From IMG/VR virus record IMGVR_UViG_2734482538_000012: a stretch of DNA of 49,248 bases; one strand, 5' to 3'. Position numbers and translations under genes: made by a program. The stretch comes from a virus (lineage: Duplodnaviria; Heunggongvirae; Uroviricota; Caudoviricetes). The notes under the pieces are model-generated. The model was given only the letters and a program-made list of their open reading frames with translations. It was not told the origin of the DNA and did not search any database. Below are positions 3,822-47,696 of this stretch, in pieces (within the stretch, counting starts at the first letter, position 1; the number at the start of each line of letters is the position of its first letter).

Positions 3822-4628
3822 TCAGAACTTATAACCGACACCCACGATGAAACCGTCAGTGCGCCAGTCGCCACTGCCGGAGCCTTCATAAGCAATATCA
3901 ATGGCCACGGATTCGGTCGGGTTAAACTGCACGCCAGCTCCCCACGCCAGAGACGTGTTGCTGTGGCGACCGTCATCACTTCCGGTCAGCACATCGTNNN
4001 NNNNNNNNNNNNNNNNNNNNNNNNNNNNNNNNNNNNNNNNNNNNNNNNNNNNNNNNNNNNNNNNNNNNNNNNNNNNNNNNNNNNNNNNNNNNNNNNNNNN
4101 NNNNNNNNNNNNNNNNNNNNNNNNNNNNNNNNNNNNNNNNNNNNNNNNNNNNNNNNNNNNNNNNNNNNNNNNNNNNNNNNNNNNNNNNNNNNNNNNNNNN
4201 NNNNNNNNNNNNNNNNNNNNNNNNNNNNNNNNNNNNNAATCCCCGGAAAAAGTCGACACACGGCTGTAAGCCACACCCGCCATCGCATACGCGCTGAACC
4301 ATTCATTCACGCGCACAGACGGCCCCGCCATCACGCTGAACCAGCGGTTACGCACGGAATCTTCATGCCAGCGGGTATCGCTGTAACGGGTCAGCTGGCG
4401 ATTCTTGTCTCCTGCATAGCTGAATGACGTCACCAGCCCCAGCGTATCCGTAAACTCATAACGGTATTTCACGTTAATCCCGTTCAGATCATCACTGCCG
4501 GGAACGTTGGTCCGGGCATGAAGATACCCCGCGCTCAGCGTGGACTGATGTTCAGACGCCCATGCAGGCGCACCGGATACGGCCAGGCAAATGGCTGCGG
4601 ACAAAATGGCTGCACAAACTTTACGCAT
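3822..4628 (-). CDS. lom: Outer-membrane protein Lom (Ail/Lom family), interrupted by an assembly gap
   Basis: N-terminus MRKVCAAILSAAICLAVSGAPAWASEHQSTLSAGY and C-terminus ...DGFIVGVGYKF match my recollection of lambda Lom; a 240-nt N-run replaces a short internal segment. Confidence 0.8.
   Translation of the reverse strand: MRKVCAAILSAAICLAVSGAPAWASEHQSTLSAGYLHARTNVPGSDDLNGINVKYRYEFTDTLGLVTSFSYAGDKNRQLTRYSDTRWHEDSVRNRWFSVMAGPSVRVNEWFSAYAMAGVAYSRVSTFSGDXXXXXXXXXXXXXXXXXXXXXXXXXXXXXXXXXXXXXXXXXXXXXXXXXXXXXXXXXXXXXXXXXXXXXXXXXXXXXXXXXDVLTGSDDGRHSNTSLAWGAGVQFNPTESVAIDIAYEGSGSGDWRTDGFIVGVGYKF
3998..4237. other. Assembly gap (240 N) inside lom
   Basis: Run of N characters in the sequence. Confidence 0.99.
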
Positions 4629-4698: not shown

Positions 4699-7600
4699 TC
4701 AACGAATACTGATGCCGGAAGCCGCTTTTTTGGTCACAATCACCGTACAGTCGGTGATATTGCCTGCCCCCTGATTGCCTTTCTGGAAAATCTTAAACTC
4801 CAGAGTGACGCTACCACCACCACTAGGCATATCAATAACTGCACTGTAACTACCGGGAATGGCACCTTTAGTTTCTCTGGATGCGATTAATACGCCGTTT
4901 TTGCGAACTTCAAAACCATAACCCGTGTATCGCGTGCCTCCCGGGTTATTTCCGCTCCCCGGATCGTCATACGCTATACCGTTAAAAATAATGGGCGGAA
5001 TAATAATCTGGCGGTCAAAGTTATGATCATCGCTGATGGTGACTGTAACCGTACCGTCTGGTGTTTCCGTGTTACCCCACGTACCGACTTTTTTCGGGAA
5101 GGCTTTTGATACAGCTTTAACGAAATCCCCTCTGACCTGGGTCGCCTCCAGCATGCCCTTAATCGTACAGTTCTGGTTAATCGTGACATTGTTGAGCGTT
5201 CCTGAGTTCGCATTCACACTACCACTGATATCCGCATTTTTAGCGGTCAGCTTTCCGTCTGATGTCAGGGAAAATACCGGAGGACTGCCACCGCTGGTAA
5301 TGGCGGGGGCTGTCAGGCGCTTCAGGAACACGTCGTTCATGAATATCTGGTTGCCCTGCGCCACAAACATCGGCGTTTCATTCCCGTTTGCCGGGTCAAT
5401 AAACGCGATACGATTGGCGGCAACCAGAAACTGGCTCAGCTTGCCTTCCTCCGTGTCCTCCATGCTGAGGCCAATACCCGCGACATAATGTTTGCCGTCT
5501 TTGGTCTGCTCAATTTTGACGCCCCACATCGCATTCCATTTATCGTTAGCGTCCTTCCACTCTTTCGAAAACTCATCCAGTCTGCTGGCGTTATCCTCCG
5601 TCAGATCAACTTTTTCCAGCAGCTCTTTACCGAGATGGGATTCGGTTATCTTGCCTTTGAAAAAATCCAGGTAACCTTCCGCATCATCGCTCGCCCGACC
5701 GACGGCCTCCACGAATGCCGATTTGCCAACGGTGTTCACACTGCGGATATAAAAGTAATAATCATGGCCCGGTTTGATATTGATACTGGCGGCTATCCAG
5801 TACAGCCCCGCGCCAAGGTAGCGGGCTGTGGTTTCAACCTGCCTGATATCGGTAATCCGCGTTTCCGAGAACCAGAACTCAAACTGTACCGTCGGATCAT
5901 AAACCGCAAGATGCGGCGTGGCAGTTATCTGAAAATAGCCCGGCGTCAGCTCAATCCGCGACGGTGCTACCGGTGCGGCAATCCTGAACGATACCGACGC
6001 CGGATCGCCCTGCTGTCCCCAGGCATTTACCGCCCGGACTGTCAGCGTGTACCGTCCCAGCGCCAGTTGCGTGAAGCGGTATGTGGTTTCCGTCGTCCGG
6101 GCCGTGCTGACCNNNNNNNNNNNNNNNNNNNNNNNNNNNNNNNNNNNNNNNNNNNNNNNNNNNNNNNNNNNNNNNNNNNNNNNNNNNNNNNNNNNNNNNN
6201 NNNNNNNNNNNNNNNNNNNNNNNNNNNNNNNNNNNNNNNNNNNNNNNNNNNNNNNNNNNNNNNNNNNNNNNNNNNNNNNNNNNNNNNNNNNNNNNNNNNN
6301 NNNNNNNNNNNNNNNNNNNNNNNNNNNNNNNNNNNNNNNNNNNNNNNNNNNNNNNNNNNNNNNNNNNNNNNNNNNNNNNNNNNNNNNNNNNNNNNNNNNN
6401 NNNNNNNNNNNNNNNNNNNNNNNNNNNNNNGCCGTCAGGAACACGGCTCACTTTCACCTTCACGCCGTCGGTGACGGACTGAACCTCCACGCTGACCGGA
6501 TTGCCACTTCCGTCAACCAGGCTTATCAGCATGGTACCGGAGGATGGCAGCGTGATTTCACGGTCGAGCGTCAGCGTCCGGGTCTGGCTGTTTACCGCCA
6601 GCACGCGCCCGCCGATGCTGATACCCGCATAGTCATCATCACAGATTTCAATGACATCGCCCGGCACATGGCGAAGCCCTTCTGCGCCCACGCTGAAGTC
6701 CACGGTCTGCGTTTCCAGCAGTTCTGTTTTAATCAGCCACAGCCCGGCGCGGTGTGCCTGCCCCCGGCTGGTACAGCCAAAAGCATCCATCTTCGTGACG
6801 TTACGACCGTAACGGGCAATGGCCTGCGTATCCTCCACAAGCTCTGTCGCCGTCTCCCAGCCGTTATCCGGGTCAATCCAGTTCACCTCAACGGCATTAT
6901 GGCGGTCTTTCAGGGCGCTGAAGCTGTAGCGGAACGGCGCGCCATCATCCGGCATCACCACATTACTGCGGTTATAGGTCCACACCTTATCCGACGGTCG
7001 GTCCTGCACGAACGTCAGCGTCTGCCCGTTCCATACCGGCATACAGCGCATCGCCGAGCAGAAATCACTGAGCACATCCCACGCCTTGCGCTGTGTGGTC
7101 AGGTACGCATTACAGGTGATGCGCGGCTCCGTGCCGCCAAAGCCGTCCGGCACTGACTGGTCGCAGTACTGGCCGATGACATACAGCGCCCATTTGTCCA
7201 CATCCGCCGCACCAAGACGTTTCCCCATGCCGTAGCGCGGGTGGGTCAGCATATCCCACAGACACCAGGCCATGTTGTTGCTGTATGCTGGTTTTAACGT
7301 TCCGTCCCAGATACCGCTGTATTGTCGCGTCTGCGGGTTATAGTTCGACGGCACCTGCAGAATGCGCCCGCGAAGATGATAATTACGANNNNNNNNNNNN
7401 NNNNNNNNNNNNNNNNNNNNNNNNNNNNNNNNNNNNNNNNNNNNNNNNNNNNNNNNNNNNNNNNNNNNNNNNNNNNNNNNNNNNNNNNNNNNNNNNNNNN
7501 NNNNNNNNNNNNNNNNNNNNNNNNNNNNNNNNNNNNNNNNNNNNNNNNNNNNNNNNNNNNNNNNNNNNNNNNNNNNNNNNNNNNNNNNNNNNNNNNNNNN

Positions 7601-8682
7601 NNNNNNNNNNNNNNNNNNNNNNNNNNNNNNNNNNNNNNACAGCGCATCGCCGAGCAGAAATCACTGAGCACATCCCACGCCTTGCGCTGTGTGGTCAGCC
7701 AGGCATTACAGGTGATGCGCGGCTCCGTGCTGCCAAAGCCGTCCGGCACCGACTGGTCACAGTACTGGCCGATGACATACAGCGCCCATTTATCCACATC
7801 TGCCGCACCAAGACGTTTCCCCATGCCATAGCGCGGATGGGTCAGCATATCCCACAGACACCAGGCCATGTTGTTGCTGTATGCCGGTTTTAACGTTCCG
7901 TCCCAGATACCGCTGTATTGCCGCGTCTGCGGATTATAGTTCGACGGCACCTGCAGAATGCGCCCGCGAAGATGATAATTACGGCTCACCTGCTGGCTGC
8001 CGAACTGCTCCGAATCCACCTGTACGCCGACCAGTGCCGTGTTCGGGTAGCACTGTTTCACATCGATGATTTCGGTGTATGACGACCAGAGCGTTTTGTT
8101 CTGCAGCTGGTCTGTGGTGCTGTCCGGTGTCATCCTGCGCATCCGGATACTGAACGGGCGCGGAGGCAGGTTATCCACCACCACCGAGACCAGATACTGC
8201 GAGGTGGTTTTGCCCTTAATGGTGATGTCTTTTTCCGTCACCCAGCCACCGTTACGCTGTATCTGAACCAGCAGGCGAACTTCAGACGGATTCCTGTCTC
8301 CCTTTGAGGTGGTTTCCACCAGTGCCTGTACACCGAAGGTAAAACGCAGTCGGTCAATGTTTGCCGACGTGATGGTCCGGGTGATCGGCGTGTCATATTT
8401 CACTTCCGTACCCAGCACCGTCTCGGAGCCGGAGGATTCAAACCCCTCCGGCGGTGACTGCTCCTGCTCACCTGCCCGGAACACCACCGTGACGCCGGAG
8501 ATGTTGGTATTCCCCTCATTGTCCAGCACCGGCGTACTGTTCAGCAGCACGCTTTTTAATCCATCCACCGGACCTTCAACCGGCCCTTCACTGATGGCAT
8601 CGATCACACTCAGCAGCTGCGTGGACTTCAGGTTGTCCTTCGCTTCGCGCGGGGTATGCCCCTTACTGCTGCCTTTACCCAT
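4699..8682 (-). CDS. J: Tail tip / host specificity protein J, fragmented by two N-gaps and a duplicated flank
   Basis: Three track ORFs (7294-8682, 5951-7354, 4699-6444) are collinear pieces of one J-like protein; N-terminus [41 protein letters not shown] matches lambda J as I recall it; the C-terminal part lies upstream of lom as in lambda. Confidence 0.8.
6113..6430. other. Assembly gap (318 N) inside J
   Basis: Run of N characters. Confidence 0.99.
7043..7983. repeat. About 345 bp of J sequence present on both sides of the 7388-7638 gap as non-identical copies
   Basis: Sequence from acagcgcatcgccgagcagaaatcactgagc to gatgataattacg occurs at about 7043-7387 and again at 7639-7983 with roughly a dozen substitutions; both encode [32 protein letters not shown]... 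Confidence 0.85.
7388..7638. other. Assembly gap (about 251 N) inside J
   Basis: Run of N characters. Confidence 0.99.
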
Positions 8683-25286: not shown

Positions 25287-26172
25287 TTGTCACCCCCATT
25301 GATATGCAGGGTGTCTTCTTCCTGTATTTTTCGTGAAGGATTTTTACTGCAGCGTTGTTCCAGGTGACCTGATGGTGAATGCGTTTATGACTGGCACCCA
25401 TAAGTGAGATTTTTACGCACGACGGCGCATACATGACGGAGTAAAAACTTTTAACGTAGGTTCCGGAATCCAGATACAGCTCGGTCATTCCGCCGCTGTT
25501 TTTCTGCGTCTGTTTCTGCCCTAACTGGACAGCACCGATCGTCATAAACAATTCACCACAGCGACCGAGATTCGTGTACGTATTCACATCCTCGTTAATG
25601 CGCCCCATGAATGAGAACGGTCGATCAACCGAACAGATAAAGCTGTTCATTGCCTTGCGTTTCACCCACGAAGCATGGCCGCCATTGTCACCAAGAAAAT
25701 CCCCGCCCTGCGACATAGCGATGGAAAGAGCAGGTATTGATTCGTAGTACGCAAGCATTTCAGAAAGGATCTCATCCAGTTTCCTTATCGGGAAATAGGC
25801 CTGGTCATAGTTGCGATCCACCCGAAACTGGAACTCGTGATAATCATCATCGAGCTGAATGAAGTATTTACACCCGACCAGTTTTGCCTGGTCGAAACAG
25901 GCATTACGGGCGTAAAAAATTGAGCGGCGGTCACTAAAATTATCGGCTTCGTCAAAACGACTAGCAATATCGGCTTTGGAAAATACCAGCACCTGTTCAC
26001 CAAATTCAGCCATGTACTGATGCCGTGTCTTATCTTCATCATCAACAACGATAAAAATTTTCCCGGTATAGCCAGCACGACGCAACGTCCGGTAAGTCAG
26101 AACTTTGTCCGGTCGCCCGTGAGTCAGAATAAAGGCGCAAAAATCATCACGCATATTCCTCCTCCCCGCCAT
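25222..26172 (-). CDS. Hypothetical protein with a DxD-type motif (possible GT-A-like nucleotide-sugar transferase fold), partner of the ParB-like gene
   Basis: 316 aa ORF overlapping the stop of the upstream ParB-like gene; hydrophobic strand followed by acidic cluster (IFIVVDDEDK) and YFIQLDDDYHEF; function not established from sequence. Confidence 0.4.
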   Translation of the reverse strand: MAGRRNMRDDFCAFILTHGRPDKVLTYRTLRRAGYTGKIFIVVDDEDKTRHQYMAEFGEQVLVFSKADIASRFDEADNFSDRRSIFYARNACFDQAKLVGCKYFIQLDDDYHEFQFRVDRNYDQAYFPIRKLDEILSEMLAYYESIPALSIAMSQGGDFLGDNGGHASWVKRKAMNSFICSVDRPFSFMGRINEDVNTYTNLGRCGELFMTIGAVQLGQKQTQKNSGGMTELYLDSGTYVKSFYSVMYAPSCVKISLMGASHKRIHHQVTWNNAAVKILHEKYRKKTPCISMGVTNDSVFESRVSGSVPDDCTTNR

Positions 26173-26935
26173 GCATGATCTCCACCATGCGCTGCGTCAT
26201 TCGGACAAATCCATTTTCAATAGCCTGCTGATAATCAATGATCACCAGCGCCGACTCCTCGAAAAGGCACTGAATTTCAGCGGGGGCATGAGCGTAATAG
26301 TCCGCAATTCTGCTGAAATTAAACACCGTGTGACGTTCTGCTGCACACAGGAGGAATTTCTCAATATCAGGATCAAGGGACGCCGAACGTATCCGGCTGA
26401 TCAGCTCCTGAGTTTTCGTATCGTCGTACAGTTCACTGATATCCGGTTTACCGCCTGACGGCTCATAAACAGGCGTATCAATTTTCGTCGTATACGGCTC
26501 CTCCTCATTTCCTGTACCGGGCAAAACATCCGTCAACAGTTCATCAATTTCTGCCGGGATGAAGCCTGTCAGGGAGACATCAAAATCAGCATTGATTAGG
26601 TCCGACAGCTCCATCCGCAACAGATCTTCATCCCAGCCAGCATTCATCGGCAGGCGATTATCTGCCAGGCGGTACGCCTTTTTCTGCTCATCCGTCAGGC
26701 CAGACAGAACAATGACCGGAACAGAATCCATTTTGAGCATTTCAGCCGCCATAACACGACCGTGACCCGCAATAATTTCGCCCTTTTCGTCAATCAGCAC
26801 CGGATTAGTCCAGCCGAATTGCTTAATACTTTCTACCAGTTGTGCCACCTGCTCAGTACTGTGCGTCCTGGCGTTGTGCGCATACGGTGACAATTCTTGT
26901 AATGGGCGATAGACTATCTTTAATTTCTCGCTCAT
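26147..26935 (-). CDS. ParB-like nuclease domain protein
   Basis: 262 aa; N-terminal ParB/Srx-type motif (YAHNARTHSTEQVAQLVESIKQFGWTNPVLIDEKGEIIAGHGRVMAA). Confidence 0.75.
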   Translation of the reverse strand: MSEKLKIVYRPLQELSPYAHNARTHSTEQVAQLVESIKQFGWTNPVLIDEKGEIIAGHGRVMAAEMLKMDSVPVIVLSGLTDEQKKAYRLADNRLPMNAGWDEDLLRMELSDLINADFDVSLTGFIPAEIDELLTDVLPGTGNEEEPYTTKIDTPVYEPSGGKPDISELYDDTKTQELISRIRSASLDPDIEKFLLCAAERHTVFNFSRIADYYAHAPAEIQCLFEESALVIIDYQQAIENGFVRMTQRMVEIMHGGEEEYA

Positions 26936-27072: not shown

Positions 27073-28530
27073 TTAGGAGCGCCAAAAAAAACCTGAAAAC
27101 AATATAATAACAGGATAAATTTCAAGGCGACCAAGAATCATAGCTATGCACATTAAATATTTTGCAATGTCATTAAGCACTCCGAATGACGATGCAGTAG
27201 CCCCAAAACCTAATCCCATATTATTAATACATGCAGCCACTGTTGCAAATGATGTAAGAAAATCATATCCCATACCATTTAACACCAGTATAAAAAACAC
27301 CGTGAAGAGAGTATAAAGAAAAAAGAAACTCCATACAGACCTCATTACACGATCTGTAACTATCTTCCCTCCTACATTTACACTCAACAACGCTCTGGGA
27401 TGAGAAAGCTGATTTATCTCGTGTTTGCTTTGTTTGAAAAGTATAAGAAATCGAAGTGACTTAATTCCACCACAGGTTGAACCTATACATCCCCCAAAGA
27501 AACTTGACAACAGCAAAAACACTATCGTGTGCGTGGGCCAGTTTGCATAATCCTGCGTAGCTAAACCATTATCAGTGAGCATGGAGCTGGCAAGAAAAAA
27601 CGAATGAATAAAACTTCCATGCAAGTCATACATACCTATATGCCAGACCTGGAAAGAGGTAACAATGATCACCCCTAAGGCTATTAACAGAAAGAAACGA
27701 AGTTCAATATCTCTGATTAAAGGTTTTATCGTTTTTCTGCTAATAACAATATACCAAAGAGTGAAGTTGAAAGCCGATAGCAGGGAAAAAGAACCAGCCA
27801 CCAGCTCAACCAAATAGTTATTAAAATATCCGATACTCTCGCTATGAGTTGAGAAACCACCAAGCGAAACTGTGGAAATCCCGTGACAAATAGCATCAAA
27901 CAAAGGCATTCCTGCAAGTCTATAACAGACAATACAAGCAATACCTAATAAAGAATAAGTTATCCACAGTGTCCGTGACGTATCGGCCAGGCGGGGAGTG
28001 AGTTTGTCATCCTTAAATGGCCCCGGCATTTCTGACTGATAAAGCTTTGCACCACCAATACCCAATAATGGCAATACTGCAACCGCCAGAACAATAACTC
28101 CTAAACCACCTATAAAATTTAACTGTGACCGATAGTACAAATATGCCCGAGGTAATGAACTAACATCATCAATTACAGTTGCTCCTGTTGTTGTTATTCC
28201 AGAAACCCCTTCAAACAGAGCATCAATGAACGTTAAATTAAGTTCTGAGTCAATCCATAAAGGGAATGCACTAATAACAGAAAACAAAATCCAAAACATT
28301 ACAATTATAATAAACCCATCACGGGTACGTAATTGAATGCCAGATTTCTTAGTTGTATACCACGCTCCGCCACCAATGCAAAAAAATATAACGAAAGTTA
28401 TAAAGAAAACGAACAGGCTTTTTTCTTTATAAAACAATGCTACAACCATTGGTGGCAACATTGAAAGACTATAGAGCCAAACCAGGAACCCACACATATG
28501 AGTAACAACTCTTACATGAGATGTATTCAT
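27073..28530 (-). CDS. trkG: Trk-system potassium uptake protein TrkG (TrkH/KtrB family)
   Basis: Multi-pass membrane protein with repeated selectivity-filter-like glycine motifs (GITTTG, GLGVIV, SLGGFST, TCGGIKS); start MNTSHVRVVTHMCGFLVW at 28530 matches my recollection of K-12 Rac TrkG; markedly AT-rich relative to its flanks. Confidence 0.85.
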   Translation of the reverse strand: MNTSHVRVVTHMCGFLVWLYSLSMLPPMVVALFYKEKSLFVFFITFVIFFCIGGGAWYTTKKSGIQLRTRDGFIIIVMFWILFSVISAFPLWIDSELNLTFIDALFEGVSGITTTGATVIDDVSSLPRAYLYYRSQLNFIGGLGVIVLAVAVLPLLGIGGAKLYQSEMPGPFKDDKLTPRLADTSRTLWITYSLLGIACIVCYRLAGMPLFDAICHGISTVSLGGFSTHSESIGYFNNYLVELVAGSFSLLSAFNFTLWYIVISRKTIKPLIRDIELRFFLLIALGVIIVTSFQVWHIGMYDLHGSFIHSFFLASSMLTDNGLATQDYANWPTHTIVFLLLSSFFGGCIGSTCGGIKSLRFLILFKQSKHEINQLSHPRALLSVNVGGKIVTDRVMRSVWSFFFLYTLFTVFFILVLNGMGYDFLTSFATVAACINNMGLGFGATASSFGVLNDIAKYLMCIAMILGRLEIYPVIILFSGFFWRS

Positions 28531-28667
28531 ATCTAAATATTCTTTCAATTATAACCACCTTGCTGCAATATTATGATTATACTGTATAAAATTTAACTCC
28601 TCTTAGATCTTACTTCACTGTTCCTTATGAAACAATCATCAAAATGAATCATATTGTAGTTAAGATT

Positions 28668-32654: not shown

Positions 32655-32941
32655 AAATGACCTTTCTTTCTCCAGATTTCTTGTGTGCGAAAAACCCCTT
32701 CAGCATGCATCAGGCGCAATTCTTCTTTGGTGTAATCGCTGGTTTTTACCCGCCCGTCGATTAGATCGTGGCATGAGCTACAGGCTATCGCCGCCTGCAT
32801 ATCATGTGGTTTTGTCGCTGTTCCGCACGTCCCCGCCAGCCTGTAATGCGCCAGCACAGAGGTTTCGGGATTGTGATTGCAGTAGCCAGGGATTCTGATC
32901 TGGCACATCTGGCCTTTAGCCGCTTTACGTAAATTCACCAT
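32651..32941 (-). CDS. Nin-region Cys/His-rich protein (YbcO/DUF1364-like)
   Basis: 96 aa; Cys/His pattern CQIRIPGYC...H...C...H...CSSCHDLIDG; same length and gene context as DLP12 YbcO as I recall it. Confidence 0.55.
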   Translation of the reverse strand: MVNLRKAAKGQMCQIRIPGYCNHNPETSVLAHYRLAGTCGTATKPHDMQAAIACSSCHDLIDGRVKTSDYTKEELRLMHAEGVFRTQEIWRKKGHL

Positions 32942-33540
32942 TACGCAAACTCCAGTAGTTGTGCGGCCACATTTTCAACTTCCTCCTGAGAGGAGAATTT
33001 ACGGAACAGAATCCAGTTCCACAGCACATTCAGTACAGATTTATAAACCTGCTGAAACTCGACTTCGTCCATATTCGCAAAAGCGATGGATTTTGCCCGA
33101 CGCCCACGGCTACCGTCCGGATAAATATGCTCGGTGTAAAATCCGGCCTGAATGGTTACCCACTCGCGGAAAGCCTCAAACGACTTTAGCAACGCCGTAT
33201 CCCGGGTTCTACGAGTCGCAACGGTGTTAAGGTATTGCTCTGCGGCATCACTCAGGGCTGGCGTGTGTTCCCGACCAACTGATTCGCACAGGTAATCAAC
33301 GAAACCAGACAGCAGTTCTCGTTCGCGAGGCGTGATCGCCCCACCGACCGGAGTCCAGTAATCGAATCCCAGTTGCAGGAGTTTGAAAAAACGCTTGTGG
33401 AATGCGTAGTTACGCACACGCTTAAAGTCTGCGTGTATCCACTCACCTATTTTGATTTGATGCAGAAAATCGCAACTCTCCGGCGTCGCCGGGAGAAGTA
33501 AACCAGAAGAGGTTTGTTTGACCAGTTGTATATGCGCCAT
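32941..33540 (-). CDS. Nin-region hypothetical protein
   Basis: 199 aa ORF with ATG at 33540, translationally coupled to the downstream gene; no recognisable motif. Confidence 0.45.
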   Translation of the reverse strand: MAHIQLVKQTSSGLLLPATPESCDFLHQIKIGEWIHADFKRVRNYAFHKRFFKLLQLGFDYWTPVGGAITPRERELLSGFVDYLCESVGREHTPALSDAAEQYLNTVATRRTRDTALLKSFEAFREWVTIQAGFYTEHIYPDGSRGRRAKSIAFANMDEVEFQQVYKSVLNVLWNWILFRKFSSQEEVENVAAQLLEFA

Positions 33541-33820
33541 TTCTCAATCTCTCGATGGCGCAGCGCAGCAGATGCCAGTTGTTCAGGCTGACGAATAAAG
33601 TATAAATAAACTGGCTATGGTGTAAAGCCCCACATAGCATGAACAAACACTACATATCAAATAGCTGGTACAAGGATAGAAATACGACACTTATTATTAA
33701 AAACGATTAGATAAATTACATTTTAATGTTATGCAAAAGTTCTTTTTTATCATAACATTTCAATAAAAGCATTACAGATGCAATCATCCCGTCATCATCA
33801 ATTATTTAAGGTGGTTAAAC

Positions 33821-35312: not shown

Positions 35313-36314
35313 TTAGTAATCTGCGTGTTTCGCACTTTTCAGAAATGCTTTCATATTTTCATTAGGTCGCTCAATTTCGAAGTTACTTCCATATAACTCT
35401 TGTAATTTTGGCCATAACTTACTTAATAACCCTCTCCTGCGATAAAATGGATGTATCCAAACGGTAGATAGGTACGGAGAATTTGCATTTGAATTGTTTA
35501 TTGTGACCAGCCCAACTAAACATTGTCGATAACCACTATTATCCATTGATTGTATTTCTTCGACGAATGGATACGCGATTACATCAGTCCAACCATGATC
35601 GGTTGTATCCCATTGCATTCCGTCATGACATTCCTTCGACTGATAGCGGCGTAAAGCTACACACGCGAGCTTTTGCCAATCTGGAGAATTAATTGTGATC
35701 TCTTCATCGTATGACGCGCCTATTGGAGCGGGTATTGGTCTGATTAATCCAGCATGGCATTCATCATAGAACTTCATGTTTCCCTCAGAAACGTTGTGTA
35801 CGTTGGGTTGCTCCATGTGTGCGCCATTCAAAAATAGCTCTGATAGTAGTGTATCTACACTGTAATCTTTATTGATTATTGTCGGCTTAGAGTTTTTCTT
35901 ATTAAGGCCGCGAGTAACGATTTTTTGATCAATGTTAACAACATGGAATAATCCGTCGGGGAGGCTAGCGAACCACGATGGGGCATCGGACCAGAATAGC
36001 ATGCCTTTTGTACTTCTTAAGAGTTTAATTAAGTTAATACAAGCTTCTTCACTAGTCTTGCCGTTGATGCGAAGTATGTTAGGACTAAAGTAATATTCAT
36101 CCATATCAGGGAATGCAGCTTCGCAAAACTCCTGTACATAATTTAGCACCTGGATTCTACAGAGATCATCATAGCTGGTAATAACTAAGGGGGTATCTTC
36201 ATTACTATTATGATTATCAATAATGCAATCTATAGCGAGACTTACTGCTTTGCGTATCACTTCAGTTGAATCTAACGACTCTAAAAATTTTGTCTTTCGT
36301 GTGCGAATATCCAT
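35313..36314 (-). CDS. Hypothetical protein with C-terminal GNAT-like (acetyltransferase-like) region
   Basis: 333 aa ORF 15 nt downstream of the HEPN-motif gene; C-terminal segment CLVGLVTINN...STVWIHPFYRRRGLLSKLWPKLQELYG resembles the beta4-alpha3 acetyl-CoA-binding motif of GNAT enzymes; AT-rich codon usage. Confidence 0.5.
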   Translation of the reverse strand: MDIRTRKTKFLESLDSTEVIRKAVSLAIDCIIDNHNSNEDTPLVITSYDDLCRIQVLNYVQEFCEAAFPDMDEYYFSPNILRINGKTSEEACINLIKLLRSTKGMLFWSDAPSWFASLPDGLFHVVNIDQKIVTRGLNKKNSKPTIINKDYSVDTLLSELFLNGAHMEQPNVHNVSEGNMKFYDECHAGLIRPIPAPIGASYDEEITINSPDWQKLACVALRRYQSKECHDGMQWDTTDHGWTDVIAYPFVEEIQSMDNSGYRQCLVGLVTINNSNANSPYLSTVWIHPFYRRRGLLSKLWPKLQELYGSNFEIERPNENMKAFLKSAKHADY

Positions 36315-36329
36315 GTATGACCTGCGCTA

Positions 36330-37352
36330 TTAAAATTCATGAATGAACGGTTTGTCATCTGGTTGCAAAATGGTGGTTTTATTCGTTGCTACATTTAAAC
36401 TGTTGTAGAGCATAATTGCCAGGTTCGATGCATTTTCAATCAGCGTTTCAAGATCCTGGTCTGTAATCACTACGAGGTTCCCTTCTTTATCCTTTCCACC
36501 ACGATGCACTAAGTGATTTCGATTGAGGGTTGCCAATTCAATAGCTTCTATCGGACAGTCTTTTTGTACTTTTATATCGAATGTAGCTTCATAGCGGTCG
36601 ATTACCTTTTTAGTGCTATGCCAGCTTGCACTGATCAAGTGTTCCTTGATTGACCTGATTAGCTCTCCCCTAATTTTCTCGATGGGTTCACCCTTGAAAG
36701 GCAACGCAGCAATATCTTTGCTTACTTTAAATTCAGTCTTACCTTTTTCTATACAATTGGCTATGTAGACATCATCTTTCTCTATAGAATTAATGAATAG
36801 CTCAACATAAAGCGTTTCCAAAGCTGTAATAACATTCGTGTAGAGCAAACTAAGCAAGTGGTTTTTTTGCTGTTGTTCAGTTTTATCTTTTGCAAGTTTT
36901 TTTATTTTATCGATATTATCAATGAATTTTAAATACGGATTACCGGAAGACGTTACAGCGTCGTAGATATCATCATCGTACCAATCATCTATATTATTTG
37001 AGTTTCCAGACCAGTCAAAACATTGTGTTTGTAATTCATCTACTAATTCCTCAATATACTCAGATTTAACATATTGACCGAAGATGGATTGTAGTTCTTC
37101 GCTCGCATCATACGGCCCGCCATATATGTAAGCATAGCCACCTTCTCTACTTTCATACGGACAAGCATTTGCCGGATCTTCAAAGTTTTCAAAGAACCAG
37201 TTTTTCATTACTTCGAGTTGATCTTTTTTGCTTATGTATTTTAAAGATTTTAGTGGAACTTTCTTTCCATTAACCTCGAAAACAATTTTCACGATGTAAC
37301 GCTCCCTTGTATCAATTGCGCAACTATTATACCACAGCGAAATACAGGGCAT
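36330..37352 (-). CDS. Hypothetical protein with HEPN-type R-x4-H motif
   Basis: Track ORF 36330-37421; likely start at ATG 37352 (MPCISLWYN) with an AAGGAGG Shine-Dalgarno 6 nt upstream; canonical RNxxxH motif (LNRNHLVHRGG, encoded about 36504-36521) in a predicted helical C-terminal region; AT-rich. Confidence 0.5.
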   Translation of the reverse strand: MPCISLWYNSCAIDTRERYIVKIVFEVNGKKVPLKSLKYISKKDQLEVMKNWFFENFEDPANACPYESREGGYAYIYGGPYDASEELQSIFGQYVKSEYIEELVDELQTQCFDWSGNSNNIDDWYDDDIYDAVTSSGNPYLKFIDNIDKIKKLAKDKTEQQQKNHLLSLLYTNVITALETLYVELFINSIEKDDVYIANCIEKGKTEFKVSKDIAALPFKGEPIEKIRGELIRSIKEHLISASWHSTKKVIDRYEATFDIKVQKDCPIEAIELATLNRNHLVHRGGKDKEGNLVVITDQDLETLIENASNLAIMLYNSLNVATNKTTILQPDDKPFIHEF

Positions 37353-37490
37353 AACCTGCCTCCTTAAACTAACATACCATGAGCCAGCAATGTCCGCTAT
37401 TGGCACAAAGCGGACAACCACGCTAGCTCTCCCCTGTGCCAGAAAAATGTCAATTTACATATGAACTAATGCTCTTTGATCTAGTAACGT

Positions 37491-38684: not shown

Positions 38685-38706
38685 AAAAATTTCCTCCCGG
38701 TAAAAA

Positions 38707-39453
38707 TTACTTCTCAATTCCTGGCTGGACGACATTCGGACGCCAGCTCTCCCAGTTAAAATTCACCCATCGCCCGCCGTTCATGGTCATGCGATCCATA
38801 ATCCGCTCGCCGAGCAATGTTTTCATGGCCTCATAGTTCAGGTTTGTCAGCATCCCCACGCTGCGCATCGACGCTGTCCGGCGATCAACAATCTGGTGCA
38901 GCACCACCTGCTCGTTTTTCGTCTCGCGCTGAATGCCAATTTCATCAAGAACCAGCAGATCCACTTCGCATAGTTCCCGCAAAAATTTTTCGCCTGACTG
39001 CCCATCGTCATAGCTGGCGTGCAGGGCACTCATAACATCAGCCACGGTAACCACAATCACTGTCTGACCGTCTTTCAGCAGGCGATTCCCGATAGCTGCC
39101 GCTAAGTGGTTCTTCCCGGTACCAGGTTTTCCGCTGAACGCAAAATTTGTACACCCGGTCATCAGTTCATCAGCGATGGATTTCGCCTGACTCAACGCGT
39201 ATCGCTGCGCTTCGTTCTGCACCTGGTAATTCGAAAACGAGCATTTGCGGTGCAATGGCTGGATGCCAGAGCGATTCAGAATTTTTTCCACCCGCAACTG
39301 ACGATTCTGACGGTTGATCTCCTCACAACGTTTCTGGCCTTCGGAAAGTTGCCACTCGCGCCACTCCGCTACCGTCTTGAATGGCGCGGTTACATGTGAC
39401 GGGGCCAGTCTGCGGATACGTTCAAGAACGTCGCCTGTCGCAATATTTTTCAT
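38707..39453 (-). CDS. ydaV: Replication protein, DnaC/IstB-like AAA+ helicase loader
   Basis: 248 aa; Walker [17 protein letters not shown] and Walker [10 protein letters not shown]; coupled to the upstream initiator gene; agggggt Shine-Dalgarno. Confidence 0.85.
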
Positions 39454-39459
39454 GGTCAG

Positions 39460-40266
39460 TTACCCCCTGAAGCCTGGCGGGATCGCACTATCCGGTAACG
39501 AGACGGTGTTAACCTGTCGGAGTAACGTCTCAGGTCGAACACCTTTCGGCGCGAACAAGCCCTGGTATTCATTGGCGATGCTGTGTCGAATCACCTGCTC
39601 AGGTGAAAAACCCTGCTGGCGGAATTTTTCCAGCTCCCGTATCGCCCCGTTAGCGCCCTGCTCCGTTCGAATCGGTTTTCGCAATGCCTGGCGAAATTCA
39701 ACCCACTCACGCCAAAGCGAGACAGAAATCCAGTTCGGCAAAGCAATATCCAGAGGGTCAAACTTTTTGACACCTCGATTCCCCCGGGGGGGATTTAGGG
39801 GGGGATCTGTTTTTAGATCTTTATCTGTATCTTTATTAGTTGCCTTTGTGTTGACATCATGTTCAAACACCACTTCAACATCTGTTTGAACACCTGTTAA
39901 ATTTCTCTCTTGTTTTGTTTGAACATCTGCTTCCTTTCTGCTTCTTCTGGCCTGAACAGATGCTTTTCCTGCGGCTGATTTTTTGGTTAATTTTTCCCTG
40001 ACTGATGCCAGATCTTCCTCAATCCGAAGATGCACCCATTCCTCGCCGTTATCGCAAAAAAACTCCTGCAAGGATGGTTCAACATCAGCCCATCGCTCGT
40101 TAGTCAGACGGGCAATTTTTGCCAGCCTGTTTTTAGGTATTGGCTTTCCTGTTTGCCAGTAATTGAACATCAGCAACAAATACGCACCATGCTCCTCTGC
40201 TGACAAATGCATGGTGTCAGCCAGGTAATCAGCTATGTACAGTTGCATGTATGGTAATGCGGCCAT
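39460..40266 (-). CDS. ydaU: Replication initiation protein (lambda O-like role)
   Basis: Track ORF to 40317; likely start MAALPYMQLYIADYLADTMHLSAEEHGAYLLLM; directly upstream of the DnaC-like gene. Confidence 0.65.
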   Translation of the reverse strand: MAALPYMQLYIADYLADTMHLSAEEHGAYLLLMFNYWQTGKPIPKNRLAKIARLTNERWADVEPSLQEFFCDNGEEWVHLRIEEDLASVREKLTKKSAAGKASVQARRSRKEADVQTKQERNLTGVQTDVEVVFEHDVNTKATNKDTDKDLKTDPPLNPPRGNRGVKKFDPLDIALPNWISVSLWREWVEFRQALRKPIRTEQGANGAIRELEKFRQQGFSPEQVIRHSIANEYQGLFAPKGVRPETLLRQVNTVSLPDSAIPPGFRG

Positions 40267-40329
40267 AATTGCCCCGTATGATGCTGCCCGGTGGCTTAGA
40301 ATAAGCACAAACAGCATGGAAACTTTTGC

Positions 40330-40752
40330 TTAATGAACAATGACAGAATCGTCGGAAGACCCGCCGCCGCTGAAATGCGCTTTCCGGTAAACGGCTTGGA
40401 CTGCATCATCATGCGCATCAATTGCCGTACTTAACGCTTCCTGCGCCGCCAGTAATGCACGGCGTTCCAGGGTATCGAAGATGCAGAGTCGGTGACGCAG
40501 CTCGCGCGGAAGGATTGCCAGAATTGCTGGGATCAGCTTCTGAATTTTTTCTCTTTGCGTTTTCGTTTCACCTTTCAACCAACGGTGATAGATATTCTGC
40601 TGATTATTCCAGTCCTTGCCTGGTACCAGGGGCAATTCGCCGCCCCCCTGGCGCAGATATTCTTCAGTAATGGCATTGGCTACCCATGCCTGCCCTTTTT
40701 CGGCTGCCAGGGCTAACAACACTGACTCGATGTGCTCATGCTTGATTTTCAT
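40330..40752 (-). CDS. ydaT: YdaT-like protein (Rac early-operon protein, toxic on overexpression in K-12)
   Basis: 140 aa ORF immediately downstream of and overlapping the Cro-like gene; order racR / ydaS / ydaT matches Rac. Confidence 0.65.
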   Translation of the reverse strand: MKIKHEHIESVLLALAAEKGQAWVANAITEEYLRQGGGELPLVPGKDWNNQQNIYHRWLKGETKTQREKIQKLIPAILAILPRELRHRLCIFDTLERRALLAAQEALSTAIDAHDDAVQAVYRKAHFSGGGSSDDSVIVH

Positions 40753-41003
40753 GAATCAACTCCCATCAGCTTTTTCGTAGTAGTTTTATTTCTGCCAATA
40801 GTTAAAATTACATCAGCAGAAAATAATCCGTTTGATGCATGAGCGATTTTTTCAGCGTAATTTGTTTCGCCGGTATATTCTGTGCGAGGCAATTTTCCGT
40901 TATCCATCCATTTGTAGATTGCTCTTTGGCTGACACCACAAACGTCGGCCACAACAGAAACGCGAACAGTTTTGATTACATCTTCAAGTGTTTTCTGGTT
41001 CAT
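40749..41003 (-). CDS. ydaS: Cro-like HTH regulator YdaS
   Basis: Track ORF 40749-41075; likely start MNQKTLEDVIKTVRVSVVADVCGVSQRAIYKWM (HTH); divergent from the repressor gene. Confidence 0.65.
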   Translation of the reverse strand: MNQKTLEDVIKTVRVSVVADVCGVSQRAIYKWMDNGKLPRTEYTGETNYAEKIAHASNGLFSADVILTIGRNKTTTKKLMGVDS

Positions 41004-41064
41004 ATCACCCTCACAATGTGAACTTTGAGTACATGCTATAACAGAACTGACAGTACATTCAAGA
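41004..41064. promoter_or_regulatory. Divergent promoter/operator region between ydaS and racR
   Basis: About 60 bp intergenic segment between divergent HTH genes, with repeated AGTACAT-containing elements (ttgagtacatgc ... gacagtacattc). Confidence 0.4.
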
Positions 41065-41502
41065 GTGAATATCATTGAACTTATGGTTCATGAAGATAAA
41101 GCGCGTAAAGAGTTCGCCAGTAGGCTTGCGCTAGCCTGTGAAAACGCTGGTTATGAACAACATGGAAGGCAGGCAGAAATTGCCCGTCGAATGAAATTAA
41201 CACCAAAAGCGGTTAGCAAATGGTTTAATGGCGAAACAATTCCTCGCCGAGAGAAATTAAGGGAATTAGCAACACTCATTGGAACAACACCAACCTATCT
41301 TTTGGGAGAGGATACAGAAGAAAGTGGACAGGTACGTTTCTATCAGGAGTTAAATCCAAGACAAAAAATCATCATTGACCTTCTGGACGAGCTCCCTGAC
41401 AGTGAGACAGATGAACTTTTAAAAACTCTTGAGGAGAAAAAACAGAAGTACAATGCAATTTACGAAGAGCTAGCACGAAAGAAAAAACAAAAAGCCTCTT
41501 AA
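41065..41502 (+). CDS. racR: Prophage repressor, HTH XRE-family (RacR-like)
   Basis: Track ORF begins with GTG at 41065 (an ATG follows at 41083); HTH (GRQAEIARRMKLTPKAVSKWFNGETIP); divergent from the Cro-like gene. Confidence 0.7.
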   Translation: MNIIELMVHEDKARKEFASRLALACENAGYEQHGRQAEIARRMKLTPKAVSKWFNGETIPRREKLRELATLIGTTPTYLLGEDTEESGQVRFYQELNPRQKIIIDLLDELPDSETDELLKTLEEKKQKYNAIYEELARKKKQKAS

Positions 41503-41744
41503 ACCAGCATAAATCCGGTAGCGTCCCCCTCCGGGTTTGTGCTTCACTTTATCCCATCTCATTTTTTTACACACAAAATGTACTTATAGTACTTTACATC
41601 AATGAACACAAAGTACATTATATACCTACCAACCCACCCCGCCCCACAGAACGCAGGGCAATACTTCGAGTTACCAGGCAGTGGTCAGGGGTTAAGTAGC
41701 CAGCCCGAGGCGTATGAACATGACGGCAGGGTTCAGATTTTGCA

Positions 41745-41927
41745 GTGCAGCAGGTTTCAGTTCCGCCACCCGGCGTTAAGGGGAGAGATAAGATGGTGCA
41801 TTACGAAGTAGTTCAGTATTTGATGGATTGTTGCGGTATCACTTACAACCAGGCTGTGCAGGCTTTACGCAGCAACGACTGGGATCTCTGGCAGGCAGAA
41901 GTCGCTATACACAGCAACAAGATGTGA
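41745..41927 (+). CDS. Small Rac-type protein (YdaF-like)
   Basis: 60 aa track ORF; sequence MVHYEVVQYLMDCCGITYNQAVQALRSNDWDLWQAEVAIHSNKM recalls Rac YdaF. Confidence 0.4.
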   Translation: MQQVSVPPPGVKGRDKMVHYEVVQYLMDCCGITYNQAVQALRSNDWDLWQAEVAIHSNKM

Positions 41928-41937
41928 GATTCGCAAA

Positions 41938-42093
41938 ATGCAAAAAATCGACCTCGGCAACAACGAATCCCTGGTGTGCGGCGTGTTCCCCAACCAGGAT
42001 GGAACGTTCACTGCCATGACGTATACCAAAAGCAAAACATTTAAAACCGAAACTGGTGCGCGCCGATGGTTGGAGAAGCACACAGTAAGCTAA
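41938..42093 (+). CDS. Small Rac-type protein (YdaG-like), not in the ORF track
   Basis: Hand translation MQKIDLGNNESLVCGVFPNQDGTFTAMTYTKSKTFKTETGARRWLEKHTVS (51 aa); ends convergently on the sieB stop. Confidence 0.4.
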   Translation: MQKIDLGNNESLVCGVFPNQDGTFTAMTYTKSKTFKTETGARRWLEKHTVS

Positions 42094-42578
42094 CGATTAA
42101 AACGTCTACTCCTGCTGTTCCAGAATAACTTCATAAAATGGGAGTATTTTTCGGTGACGAGATAATAAGAACAGTTTGCGCTATCACTCTGATGTTGAAT
42201 GATGCCCTTCCGTTCTAATTTTTTCATAACCGGGTTACGGCAAGGAGAAGTGATAATAAGATTTCCTGTTTTAAGGAAATCTTTAAATACAGCGATTTCT
42301 TTCTCAGATAAACGAAGCAATACTCGTTGCTCTGGTAGTAATGAATAATGCTTTTGAATATGTGCTCGCAATCTTGAGAAGGAAATGGCGACCACGAAAG
42401 AAAAGGCAAAAACGATAATCTGAAAGAGCCAAGGTATTTCAGTATAAGCATTGAATGCGACAGTAAACTCTTTCGGTATCAGCCAGAGAGTGAGACCAAA
42501 AATGATAATCGTATACATAAGTATTTCGAGTGGCTCGTTAGCAAAAAGTTTCAACAATGGAGTAAATACATCCAACAT
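42090..42578 (-). CDS. sieB: Superinfection exclusion protein SieB
   Basis: Track ORF to 42701; likely start MLDVFTPLLKLFANEPLE (162 aa); two hydrophobic transmembrane segments; opposite strand to the early-left genes, as in Rac. Confidence 0.7.
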   Translation of the reverse strand: MLDVFTPLLKLFANEPLEILMYTIIIFGLTLWLIPKEFTVAFNAYTEIPWLFQIIVFAFSFVVAISFSRLRAHIQKHYSLLPEQRVLLRLSEKEIAVFKDFLKTGNLIITSPCRNPVMKKLERKGIIQHQSDSANCSYYLVTEKYSHFMKLFWNSRSRRFNR

Positions 42579-43019
42579 ATCAATAACTCTCAACTGTAAG
42601 GGTATTGAAATGTTAACACAAGCTCTCGCTGTAGGGGTATAGCCGAGACCACCGAAGCCCGGAGGTGGTGAAATAAAACCGGGCACAACACGAAGGCGCA
42701 TTTCCGATATCCATAAAGAGTCGGTCTTGTCTGTTAAATTTAAATGGTGGGAGTGCGCCTCCGGTTGTAAATAACGACATTGCTGTGTGTAGTCCTGGCG
42801 GCATCAGTTTTTTTCTTGAAGTTCGGCTGATGTCCGCCCTTTTTAAAGTGAATTTTGTGATGCGGTGAATGCGGCTAAGCGCACGTGGCACAGTTAAAAG
42901 TCATGTTAGTCCTTATTGGTTTGGGTGGGAAAGCCGACTGTAATTGTTAACTGGTTGCAGTCACCTGGAGGCACCAGGCACCGCATCAACAAAGTTCATT
43001 TGTAAAAATGGAGATAATT

Positions 43020-43241
43020 ATGATTGCACATCACTTCGGAACTGATGAAATACCACGTCAGTGTGTGACTCCTGGCGATTATGTTCTTCATGAAGGCCGG
43101 ACATATATTGCCTCGGCAAACAATATTAAAAAGCGAAAACTATATATTCGTAACCTGACCACAAAAACATGCATTACTGACCGCATGATTAAAGTCTTCC
43201 TCGGTCGTGATGGTTTACCTGTAAAGGCGGAGTCATGGTGA
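43020..43241 (+). CDS. kilR: Cell-division inhibitor KilR (FtsZ-ring inhibitor)
   Basis: Track ORF 43008-43241; [46 protein letters not shown]... (73 aa from 43020) matches my recollection of Rac KilR; ggaga Shine-Dalgarno. Confidence 0.75.
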
Positions 43242-47507: not shown

Positions 47508-47696
47508 ATGTATAAAATTACCGCCACTATTGAAAAGGAAGGTGGCACTCCTACTAACTGGACAAGATATTCAAAATCTAAACTAACGAAATCAGAATGC
47601 GAAAAAATGCTCTCAGGTAAAAAAGAAGCAGGCGTTTCCAGAGAGCAGAAAGTAAAACTGATAAATTTTAATTGCGAGAAACTTCAGTCCTCGTGA
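47508..47696 (+). CDS. ydaC: YdaC-like small protein
   Basis: Track ORF 47436-47696; likely start MYKITATIEKEGGTPTNWTRY at 47508 preceded by ggagg; gene order ralR / ydaC / xis as in Rac. Confidence 0.6.
   Translation: MYKITATIEKEGGTPTNWTRYSKSKLTKSECEKMLSGKKEAGVSREQKVKLINFNCEKLQSS

Follow-up and report, generated by a model that had tools for sequence, protein, structure and literature searches.

Probable replacement of racR-ydaS by an HK022-type immunity cassette in a full-size Rac-like prophage

In Escherichia coli K-12, the Rac prophage has a repressor gene, racR, that is essential through ydaS-ydaT (PMC5700373, PMC5700377). YdaS and YdaT have been argued to be analogues of Cro and CII, which disputes their framing as toxins (PMC5917428, PMC8630535). 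Footprinting located K-12 YdaT on a box of sequence ATGATTCATGAAAATCAA, from which it activates a reverse promoter inside ydaS and raises racR expression (PMC11879457). Similarly, prophage CP-933P of E. coli O157:H7 encodes a CI analogue with a leaderless mRNA (PaaR2), a Cro analogue (YdaS) and a CII analogue (YdaT). In CP-933P, YdaT activates an establishment promoter (PRE) between ydaS and ydaT (PMC8630535), adjacent to a TTGATT-N6-AATCAA box (PMC8630535, PMC9986795). The present analysis concerns the corresponding region, from position 40330 to about 41626, of virus record IMGVR_UViG_2734482538_000012; the whole stretch analysed, 49,248 nucleotides in length, is called the window and represents a full-size Rac-like prophage. 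This region is best read, with a probability of about 0.8, as the immunity region of a lambdoid prophage in which the K-12-type racR-ydaS genes have been replaced by a cassette of the type found in phage HK022.

Two further systems are close to this locus. The repressors DicA, which is paired with DicC in the Qin prophage, and GfoR and GtgR of the Gifsy prophages are proteins of ~135-140 residues that join an XRE helix-turn-helix (HTH) domain to a short helical C-terminal domain. Short repressors of this type have no Ala-Gly/S24 module, are not cleaved and are relieved by antirepressors, which can act in trans and are often LexA-controlled (PMC3121763). DicA is relieved by Rem, and also flips spontaneously, independent of both RecA and Rem (PMC10448788). 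The other system is that of HK022 itself, whose CI repressor is a protein of 235 residues with a Peptidase_S24 autocleavage domain.

As far as its sequence tells, the locus is a real and ordinary phage lysis/lysogeny switch, in which only ydaT matches K-12 Rac. A first-pass annotation, made from the letters alone, had named its genes racR, ydaS and ydaT. The divergent layout that it described was borne out, with ydaT (40330-40752) and a Cro-like HTH gene (40749-41003) on the minus strand and an HTH repressor gene on the plus strand that ends at 41502. In the open reading frame (ORF) listing for window positions 40000-42200, the Cro-like gene and the start of ydaT overlap by 4 bases. The name ydaT also held, 139 of the 140 residues of its product being identical to K-12 YdaT.

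The other two names were not supported. With K-12 RacR, only 33 HTH residues of the repressor align in BLASTP (12 identical), and the same program aligns the Cro-like protein with K-12 YdaS at 6 identical residues of 18. At E <= 0.01, the repressor has no match to the RacR equivalog NF049929 (cut-off 200 bits), against which K-12 RacR scores 244.6 bits. Similarly, the Cro-like protein has no match at E <= 0.01 to the Pfam family PF15943, YdaS_toxin (gathering threshold 30 bits), against which K-12 YdaS scores 107.7 bits. Pfam instead returns HTH_3/HTH_31 for the repressor and weak HTH families for the Cro-like protein, while ydaT matches YdaT_toxin. Profile comparisons with hhalign related the repressor family to RacR with 18% probability and to DicA with 97.4% probability over 105 columns. 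A RacR-like C-terminal domain that a MAFFT alignment had suggested was unsupported by hhalign and was set aside.

The locus occupies the same prophage position as the K-12 switch and has the same flanking genes (ydaU, ydaV, ydaF, sieB, kilR and recET). As in K-12 Rac, a YdaT-box lies over the ydaT start codon, operators lie on both sides of the repressor gene and the repressor is short and predicted to be non-cleavable. This shared gene order, together with a ydaT that is 99% identical and the essentiality of racR in K-12 through ydaS-ydaT (PMC5700373, PMC5700377), would favour a reading of the two genes as racR and ydaS orthologues, that is, as a toxin-repressor pair whose repressor is essential by silencing YdaS and YdaT. 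That reading is highly improbable, and on sequence grounds its orthology part is already refuted by the protein comparisons above. Furthermore, the stretch 40759-41626 has no alignment with K-12, and in the comparison of operators that the first-pass annotation had proposed, those of the window are of the HK022 type and not of the K-12 type, the repeats of which are TTAGGC...GCCTAA. The repressor-cro gap also differs (123 bp in K-12, 79 bp in the window), and ydaS, which contains the K-12 reverse promoter PracR4, is missing from the window. Because ydaS is absent, the K-12 finding that racR is essential by silencing a toxic ydaS-ydaT pair cannot simply be carried over to this prophage. What stands of the earlier description is a lambdoid immunity switch in which YdaT is the CII analogue beside a repressor and a Cro analogue; its toxin framing is disputed.

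The replacement of racR-ydaS is delimited by nucleotide comparison. The flanks, at 38700-40758 and 41627-43203, are 99% identical to K-12 Rac in blastn, and the 868 bp between them (40759-41626) are unaligned with K-12, where 1059 bp sit instead. This exchanged cassette runs from the outer base of the YdaT-box, which forms its left edge, to the vicinity of +1 of PL, K-12 homology resuming at 41627. The unit includes the OL/PL region and reaches about 41626, past the end at 41502 that had been given for the locus. When 40200-41700 was compared by megablast with 5426 complete E. coli genomes, K-12 matched in two pieces that together make up only 42% of the query. The locus of E. coli strain 1428 is 99.9% identical over 1.5 kb, and the PGAP annotation of that strain gives the same Cro coordinates and a repressor of 139 residues that starts at ATG 41083.

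The same cassette is found in Escherichia phage Tritos, a Qin-like lambdoid phage with dicB and dicF that is otherwise different and shares only window positions 40729-41784, at 96% identity. As the backbone of Tritos differs and yet carries the cassette, the cassette moves between phage backbones. No publication on phage Tritos turned up under its name. The cassette alone (40764-41626, at least 80% coverage) is present in 1047 of the 5426 genomes, among them E. coli W, O157:H7 strains and B7A, and it is contiguous with the present ydaT in 618. Its annotation is always generic, the RefSeq label being only 'helix-turn-helix protein'. The K-12 racR-ydaS cassette occurs in 1085 of these genomes, many of which are laboratory K-12 derivatives. 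An earlier survey found ydaS in only 34% of strains and interpreted this as loss (PMC5700373); replacement by cassettes of the present kind probably explains part of the apparent loss of racR-ydaS in surveys.

Operators were sought with a matrix built solely from the five annotated sites of HK022 (GenBank X16093), with which the whole 49-kb window was scanned. The pattern recovered is a 17-bp pseudo-palindrome, ATGWAC-N5-GTWCAT, in five places. Three predicted sites lie in the intergenic region: OR1 (GTGAACTTTGAGTACAT, 41018-41034, score 17.3), over the predicted PR start site; OR2 (CAGAACTGACAGTACAT, 41042-41058, score 15.4), in the PR spacer and holding the PRM -35; and OR3 (TTGAACTTATGGTTCAT, 41075-41091), which overlaps the repressor start codon and has the best score in the window, 20.6. 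The predicted OL pair, downstream of the repressor gene, consists of ATGTACTTATAGTACTT (41578-41594, score 19.0), which is homologous to an annotated HK022 oL site, and ATGAACACAAAGTACAT (41602-41618, score 14.8), which alone in the window fits ATGWAC-N5-GTWCAT perfectly. Site starts are 24 and 33 bp apart among OR1, OR2 and OR3, and 24 bp apart within the OL pair.

These five sites have the five highest scores in the 49 kb, the sixth scoring 12.0, and the fifth-best score of 14.8 compares with a maximum of 12.7 at rank 5 across 200 shuffles. The layout was compared in diverged relatives, taken from public assemblies, that range from 89% to about 50% repressor identity, namely an 89% E. coli variant, Salmonella short repressors (62-65%), an O157:H7 Rac-like prophage and a Raoultella S24-type locus. 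All of them have OR sites at -65, -41 and -8 from the repressor ATG and an OL pair with a 24-bp spacing. As predictions, the switch operators are thus statistically solid and conserved. An initial pattern derived from the window itself was circular and uninformative (80 matches against 55 expected at 3 mismatches), and was replaced by the HK022-only matrix. The AGTACAT elements reported earlier do occur as two exact copies in the gap (41028-41034 and 41052-41058), where they are half-sites of OR1 and OR2, but with 5 copies found in the window and 3.8 expected they are not enriched, and the 17-bp palindrome replaces them as the repeat unit. The sixth-best match, ATGAACAAACACTACAT (33639-33655), has one mismatch to the palindrome and lies just upstream of a ninB-type gene (32941-33540, minus strand). 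It is also present in a related locus (L006); its score is within the range of shuffled sequences, and it is probably a chance match.

The start of the repressor gene had been placed at GTG 41065, with a gap of about 60 bp. Both PGAP, in strain 1428, and the Tritos record start the gene at ATG 41083, which lies inside OR3 exactly as the HK022 cI ATG does. Furthermore, every repressor homologue begins MVHEDKARKEF, and GTG 41065 falls within the spacer of the best promoter-like site. These observations identify ATG 41083 as the start, so that the intergenic region is 79 bp long (41004-41082), and make GTG 41065 very unlikely. The in-frame GTG would be carried on any transcript from an upstream YdaT-dependent promoter, with no ribosome-binding site evident; induction of Gifsy-3 is reported to yield an N-terminally extended form of its repressor (PMC3121763).

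A consensus scan yields two plus-strand promoters. The first, CTGACA-17-TATCAT (41047-41075), matches the consensus at 10 of 12 positions and is placed as PRM for the repressor gene. Its -10 register is kept in relatives, as TATAGT in HK022, TATAAT in Salmonella and TATGAT in Raoultella. As the promoter-like site ends 7 bases before ATG 41083, transcription is predicted to start at or next to the A of that codon and to give a leaderless repressor mRNA, like those of lambda cI and of PaaR2 in CP-933P. The second, TTTACA-17-CATTAT (41593-41621), is a PL-like promoter at the position of the annotated HK022 pL, TTTACA-17-CATCAT, and is followed by the early-left operon, with ydaF, kilR, racC, recE, recT, ralR, xis and int. 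On the minus strand, a PR-like promoter for cro, ydaT and the replication genes (41033-41062) is placed by its positional homology to the annotated HK022 pR, with a -35 of TTGAAT (41062-41057) and a -10 of either TAGCAT (41038-41033, 18-nucleotide spacer) or TATAGC (16-nucleotide spacer). The predicted start sites of PR and PRM are only about 56 bp apart. By consensus and homologous position, then, the locus has the divergent PR and PRM under shared operators, and the second set of operators at PL, of a lambdoid switch.

A hairpin at 41506-41543 (plus strand) begins 4 bases after the repressor stop codon and has a folding energy of -19.4 kcal/mol (z = -5.2), with none of 200 shuffles folding as well. 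Its stem is kept and its loop has diverged in one relative (L011). It has no canonical T-run or T tail, and is a probable terminator of the repressor transcript. The slot that it occupies, between the repressor gene and OL, holds only this hairpin in the window. In Salmonella relatives it contains a HigB toxin gene and, after it, an HTH gene, the probable HigA antitoxin, and in a Raoultella relative a 480-residue AAA/SMC-like ATPase (the slot in relatives being L009 3053-3720, L010 3088-3755 and L012 3308-4750). In CP-933P, the slot downstream of the repressor holds paaA2-parE2 (PMC8630535). It looks like a recurrent site for morons that are expressed in the lysogen.

The Cro-like gene encodes a protein of 84 residues that is 61.6% identical to HK022 Cro over 73 residues; it has no similarity to DicC. 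A longer ORF of 108 residues from ATG 41075, as given in the Tritos record, was dropped in favour of 84 residues on the basis of the HK022 Cro alignment and PGAP. In that record (L003 31285-31611), the Cro start appears over-extended, as it lies inside OR3/PRM and the operator layout indicates 84 residues. Similarly, a Salmonella record (L010 2501-2956) gives a repressor of 151 residues that starts upstream of OR1, where the operator layout indicates 138.

The likeness to HK022 extends across the switch. The cI-cro gap is 79 bp in both, successive OR sites begin at distances of 24 and 33 bp and OR3 covers the cI ATG, the OL pair is 24 bp apart and straddles PL, and the promoter positions equal those annotated in HK022. 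The half-sites ATGAAC / GTACAT are near-identical, and OR3 differs from HK022 OR3, TTGAACTTATGGTTCAA, in its last base only. Cro is 62% identical and the DNA-binding domain of CI 47%. HK022 differs in having the lambda-type cII/pE where the window has ydaT and a YdaT-box, in its backbone, which in the window is Rac-like, and in two further sites, OFR, which lies downstream of cro, and OL3, that have no equivalent in the window. On the matrix, these two HK022 sites score 18.1 and 11.6, respectively, whereas nothing besides the five operators exceeds 6.1 between 40300 and 42300. CP-933P differs in its operator consensus, GTTTAGTAA repeats, and in the paaA2-parE2 toxin-antitoxin pair that follows its repressor, where the window has only the hairpin.

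A further difference from HK022 lies in the repressor itself. The prophage repressor (41083-41502, plus strand) is a protein of 139 residues, identical over its entire length to the 'CI repressor' of phage Tritos (tblastn, phage records), in which a disordered linker joins an HTH domain of HK022 CI type to a DicA-type C-terminal domain of two helices. Over residues 4-102, identity to the N-terminal part of HK022 CI is 47.5%. Short and S24-bearing relatives keep the recognition helix, TPKAVSKWFNGE, and its HK022 counterpart, TPKAISKWFNGE, has one V/I change. HK022 CI matches Peptidase_S24 (PF00717, 69.5 bits), whereas Pfam finds only HTH families in the window repressor. In alignments it lacks both the SAGPG cleavage site and the Ser/Lys dyad, which are present only in long forms.

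The resemblance to DicA amounts to 29% identity over residues 30-137 in BLASTP (E = 5e-15). Like the DicA/Gifsy repressors, the protein falls in the short size class and lacks the Ala-Gly/S24 cleavage module. It is set apart from them by operators and a recognition helix of HK022 type, and by a switch near which neither a Rem homologue (tblastn) nor a GfoA-type antirepressor was found. In an AlphaFold2 model (pLDDT 82.6), five helices form the HTH domain, residues 77-87 a disordered linker and residues 92-138 a helical hairpin, whose helices span residues 92-103 and 106-138. A fold search of the Protein Data Bank with the model gave generic HTH matches only (E > 1e-3) and did not inform the C-terminal domain, and a sequence search of solved structures found only the P22 C2 N-terminal domain (E = 0.006).

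Homologues that share the N-terminal domain fall into two groups, one of short proteins of 138-139 residues (E. coli, Salmonella) and one of long proteins of 235-240 residues with an S24 domain (Raoultella; Klebsiella phages). As close relatives of the N-terminal domain bear a full S24 domain, the short repressor could be taken for a decayed, truncated remnant of an S24-type CI, a non-inducible dead end. This is very improbable given that homology to DicA extends over the whole of its C-terminal 50 residues, and that the tail is kept, with many invariant positions, in Salmonella proteins that are only 62-65% identical. In addition, the tail is predicted as a confident helical hairpin, and the same protein occurs in about 19% of the complete E. 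coli genomes. It is conceivable, at somewhat less than even odds, that one DNA-binding specificity, defined by the HK022 helix and operators, is served in nature by two interchangeable tails: the SOS-cleavable S24 tail of HK022 and of the Klebsiella and Raoultella phages, and the non-cleavable DicA-type tail of the present cassette. That one operator specificity appears with both kinds of tail is the only moderately novel angle of the locus. The cassette is uncharacterised but very common and belongs to known kinds; mechanistically it is a textbook lambdoid switch, and a modest surprise.

The ydaT gene encodes a CII-analogue transcription factor, as judged from its matches to PHROG 163, 'CII-like transcriptional activator' (3e-37), and to Pfam PF06254, YdaT_toxin (44.8 bits; cut-off 21), and residues H56 and R57 are kept as in K-12. 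A perfect palindrome, TTGATT-N6-AATCAA (40742-40759), lies over the ydaT ATG (40750-52) and the Cro stop codon; this putative YdaT-box is near-identical to the K-12 Rac box and invariant in four relatives. A relaxed promoter scan finds a candidate -10, TAAAAT (40803-40808, plus strand), for a YdaT-dependent PRE analogue that would read antisense through cro toward the repressor gene. Here four relatives, among them the variant with an 89% identical repressor, share the sequence GTTAAAAT unchanged. Coding constraint on the cro strand could account for this equally well, and the PRE candidate is only a lead.

Taken together, these elements suggest the following mechanism. In the lysogen, repressor bound at OR1 and OR2 would block PR and so keep off the cro-ydaT-ydaU-ydaV-nin-Q operon and the late genes, and repressor at the OL pair would block PL and keep off kilR, recET, ralR and xis-int. 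OR3, which covers the start of the leaderless PRM transcript, would provide negative autoregulation. Cro would bind the same operators and shut off PRM. YdaT, bound to the box at its own start codon, would activate, as has been found in K-12 Rac and in CP-933P, an antisense establishment promoter that reads into the repressor gene.

Several observations weigh against this reading of the locus. Repressor function and all promoter start sites are inferred from sequence; the PR -10 is weak, and the consensus scan did not score PR above its threshold. OR2 contains the PRM -35, which is puzzling for repressor expression when OR1 and OR2 are occupied, a puzzle that HK022 shares. Without OL3 and OFR, cooperativity or looping may differ from that of HK022, and a DicA-type C-terminal domain may not support either. 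The repressor scores 56.8 bits full-length against the NCBIfam DicA model NF007257, below the curated cut-off of 101; on this evidence it is a relative of DicA and not DicA itself. As to induction, the window contains no Rem homologue by tblastn and no exact LexA box. Finally, three masked runs of N in the tail-fibre/J-protein region (3998-4237, 6113-6430 and 7389-7638) hide the integrity of genes there, and the integrase gene runs off the end of the window, which limits the check on intactness.

How the switch would be induced is the least certain step of the mechanism. With a DicA/Gifsy-type tail in place of the S24 autoprotease, RecA would be unable to trigger self-cleavage of the repressor, and derepression would depend on an antirepressor supplied in trans or on stochastic or stress-driven flipping. 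Induction is most likely independent of RecA cleavage and mediated by an antirepressor, which may be encoded elsewhere in the genome. It is possible, although somewhat unlikely, that no antirepressor is involved and that flipping is stochastic or proceeds through Cro or a stress-sensitive folding of the repressor. The DicA/DicC pair is bistable and responsive to urea and heat, and flips at ~1% with no dependence on recA or rem (PMC10448788), and spontaneous derepression of the DicA-controlled dicBp, independent of Rem and RecA, has been reported; the lack of a Rem homologue and of an exact LexA box in the window points in the same direction. Gifsy-type repressors, on the other hand, are relieved by LexA-controlled antirepressors, including those of other prophages (PMC3121763), and Rem does derepress DicA (PMC10448788). 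In addition, lysis by the Rac-like phage KingRac was higher in the presence of a second prophage, which fits trans-acting factors but is no proof of them (PMC6731689).

The first-pass annotation had also linked the switch to an intact lytic programme. The switch so linked is not RacR/YdaS, but the linkage itself is supported by the full-length ORFs for replication genes, a Q-like antiterminator, holin, endolysin and spanin in this full-size Rac-like prophage. PHROGs match the spanin, endolysin, holin, Q-like antiterminator and NinB in the window. The head and tail block (7639-29131) is 98.8% identical to that of strain 1428, which is annotated without pseudogenes and includes tape-measure, tail tube, capsid, portal-type and terminase genes and trkG. 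Furthermore, virion formation, lysogeny of K-12 in the mouse gut and only weak induction by mitomycin C are reported for KingRac, a full-size Rac-like prophage of similar size (PMC6731689).

Were the prophage defective, the switch would serve only to silence kilR, ydaT and the replication genes, as in K-12 Rac/Qin, and no virions would form. Many Rac elements are indeed cryptic (PMC5700373), the N runs conceal parts of tail genes and the window yielded neither an antirepressor nor a LexA box. The GenBank 'phages' in which the cassette sits in a Rac backbone (vB_EcoS-673R7, -613R10 and -666R9) are PHASTER predictions and not isolates, and were discarded as evidence of viability. A defective prophage is nevertheless improbable in view of the full-length replication, Q-like, holin, endolysin and spanin ORFs, and of terminase, portal, capsid and tail genes that are unbroken as judged from the block of strain 1428. 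The comparable KingRac, moreover, makes particles and lysogenises new hosts, and Tritos, which was deposited as a complete phage genome, uses an identical repressor.

Outside the immunity region, the window contains several accessory features. Two adjacent cargo genes (35313-37421, minus strand; 333 and 363 residues) occupy the nin-region slot, in which strain 1428 carries different genes (KilA-N and others). They have weak Pfam hints (C-terminal GNAT; HEPN/RES N-terminal domain 1) and no PADLOC match, and may be an uncharacterised defence or toxin-antitoxin moron. The RalA antitoxin small RNA (47514-47692, minus strand; Rfam RF02694, 225 bits) lies opposite ralR/rcbA, which indicates that the RalR/RalA type I toxin-antitoxin pair is present. 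Upstream of the terminase genes is a ParB/Srx-like ORF (26147-26935, minus strand) that matches a PADLOC type II methyltransferase model at 1.5e-38, and trkG, a potassium transporter gene of host type, lies between the lysis and packaging genes (about 27073-28548, minus strand), as in other Rac elements. The segment 29131-32050 and the lysis cassette differ between the prophages of the window and of strain 1428. The latter has tRNA-Gly and tRNA-Thr genes between the Q-like gene and the lysis genes; ARAGORN found no tRNA genes anywhere in the window.

The comparison corrects an error of annotation by position, in that racR-ydaS is not present in every Rac-like prophage, and the HK022-type and K-12 cassettes have similar frequencies (1047 and 1085 of the 5426 genomes). 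If the repressor tails are interchangeable, prophages of one immunity group would differ in their inducing signal. A lysogen of the present cassette would be immune to HK022-type phages and yet blind to RecA unless an antirepressor were supplied by another element. From a short repressor without S24, induction of this widespread prophage, with its recET, kilR, ralR and trkG, is predicted to be independent of SOS or dependent on an antirepressor, and this mode of induction bears on the crosstalk between prophages and on the weak mitomycin induction of Rac-like phages.

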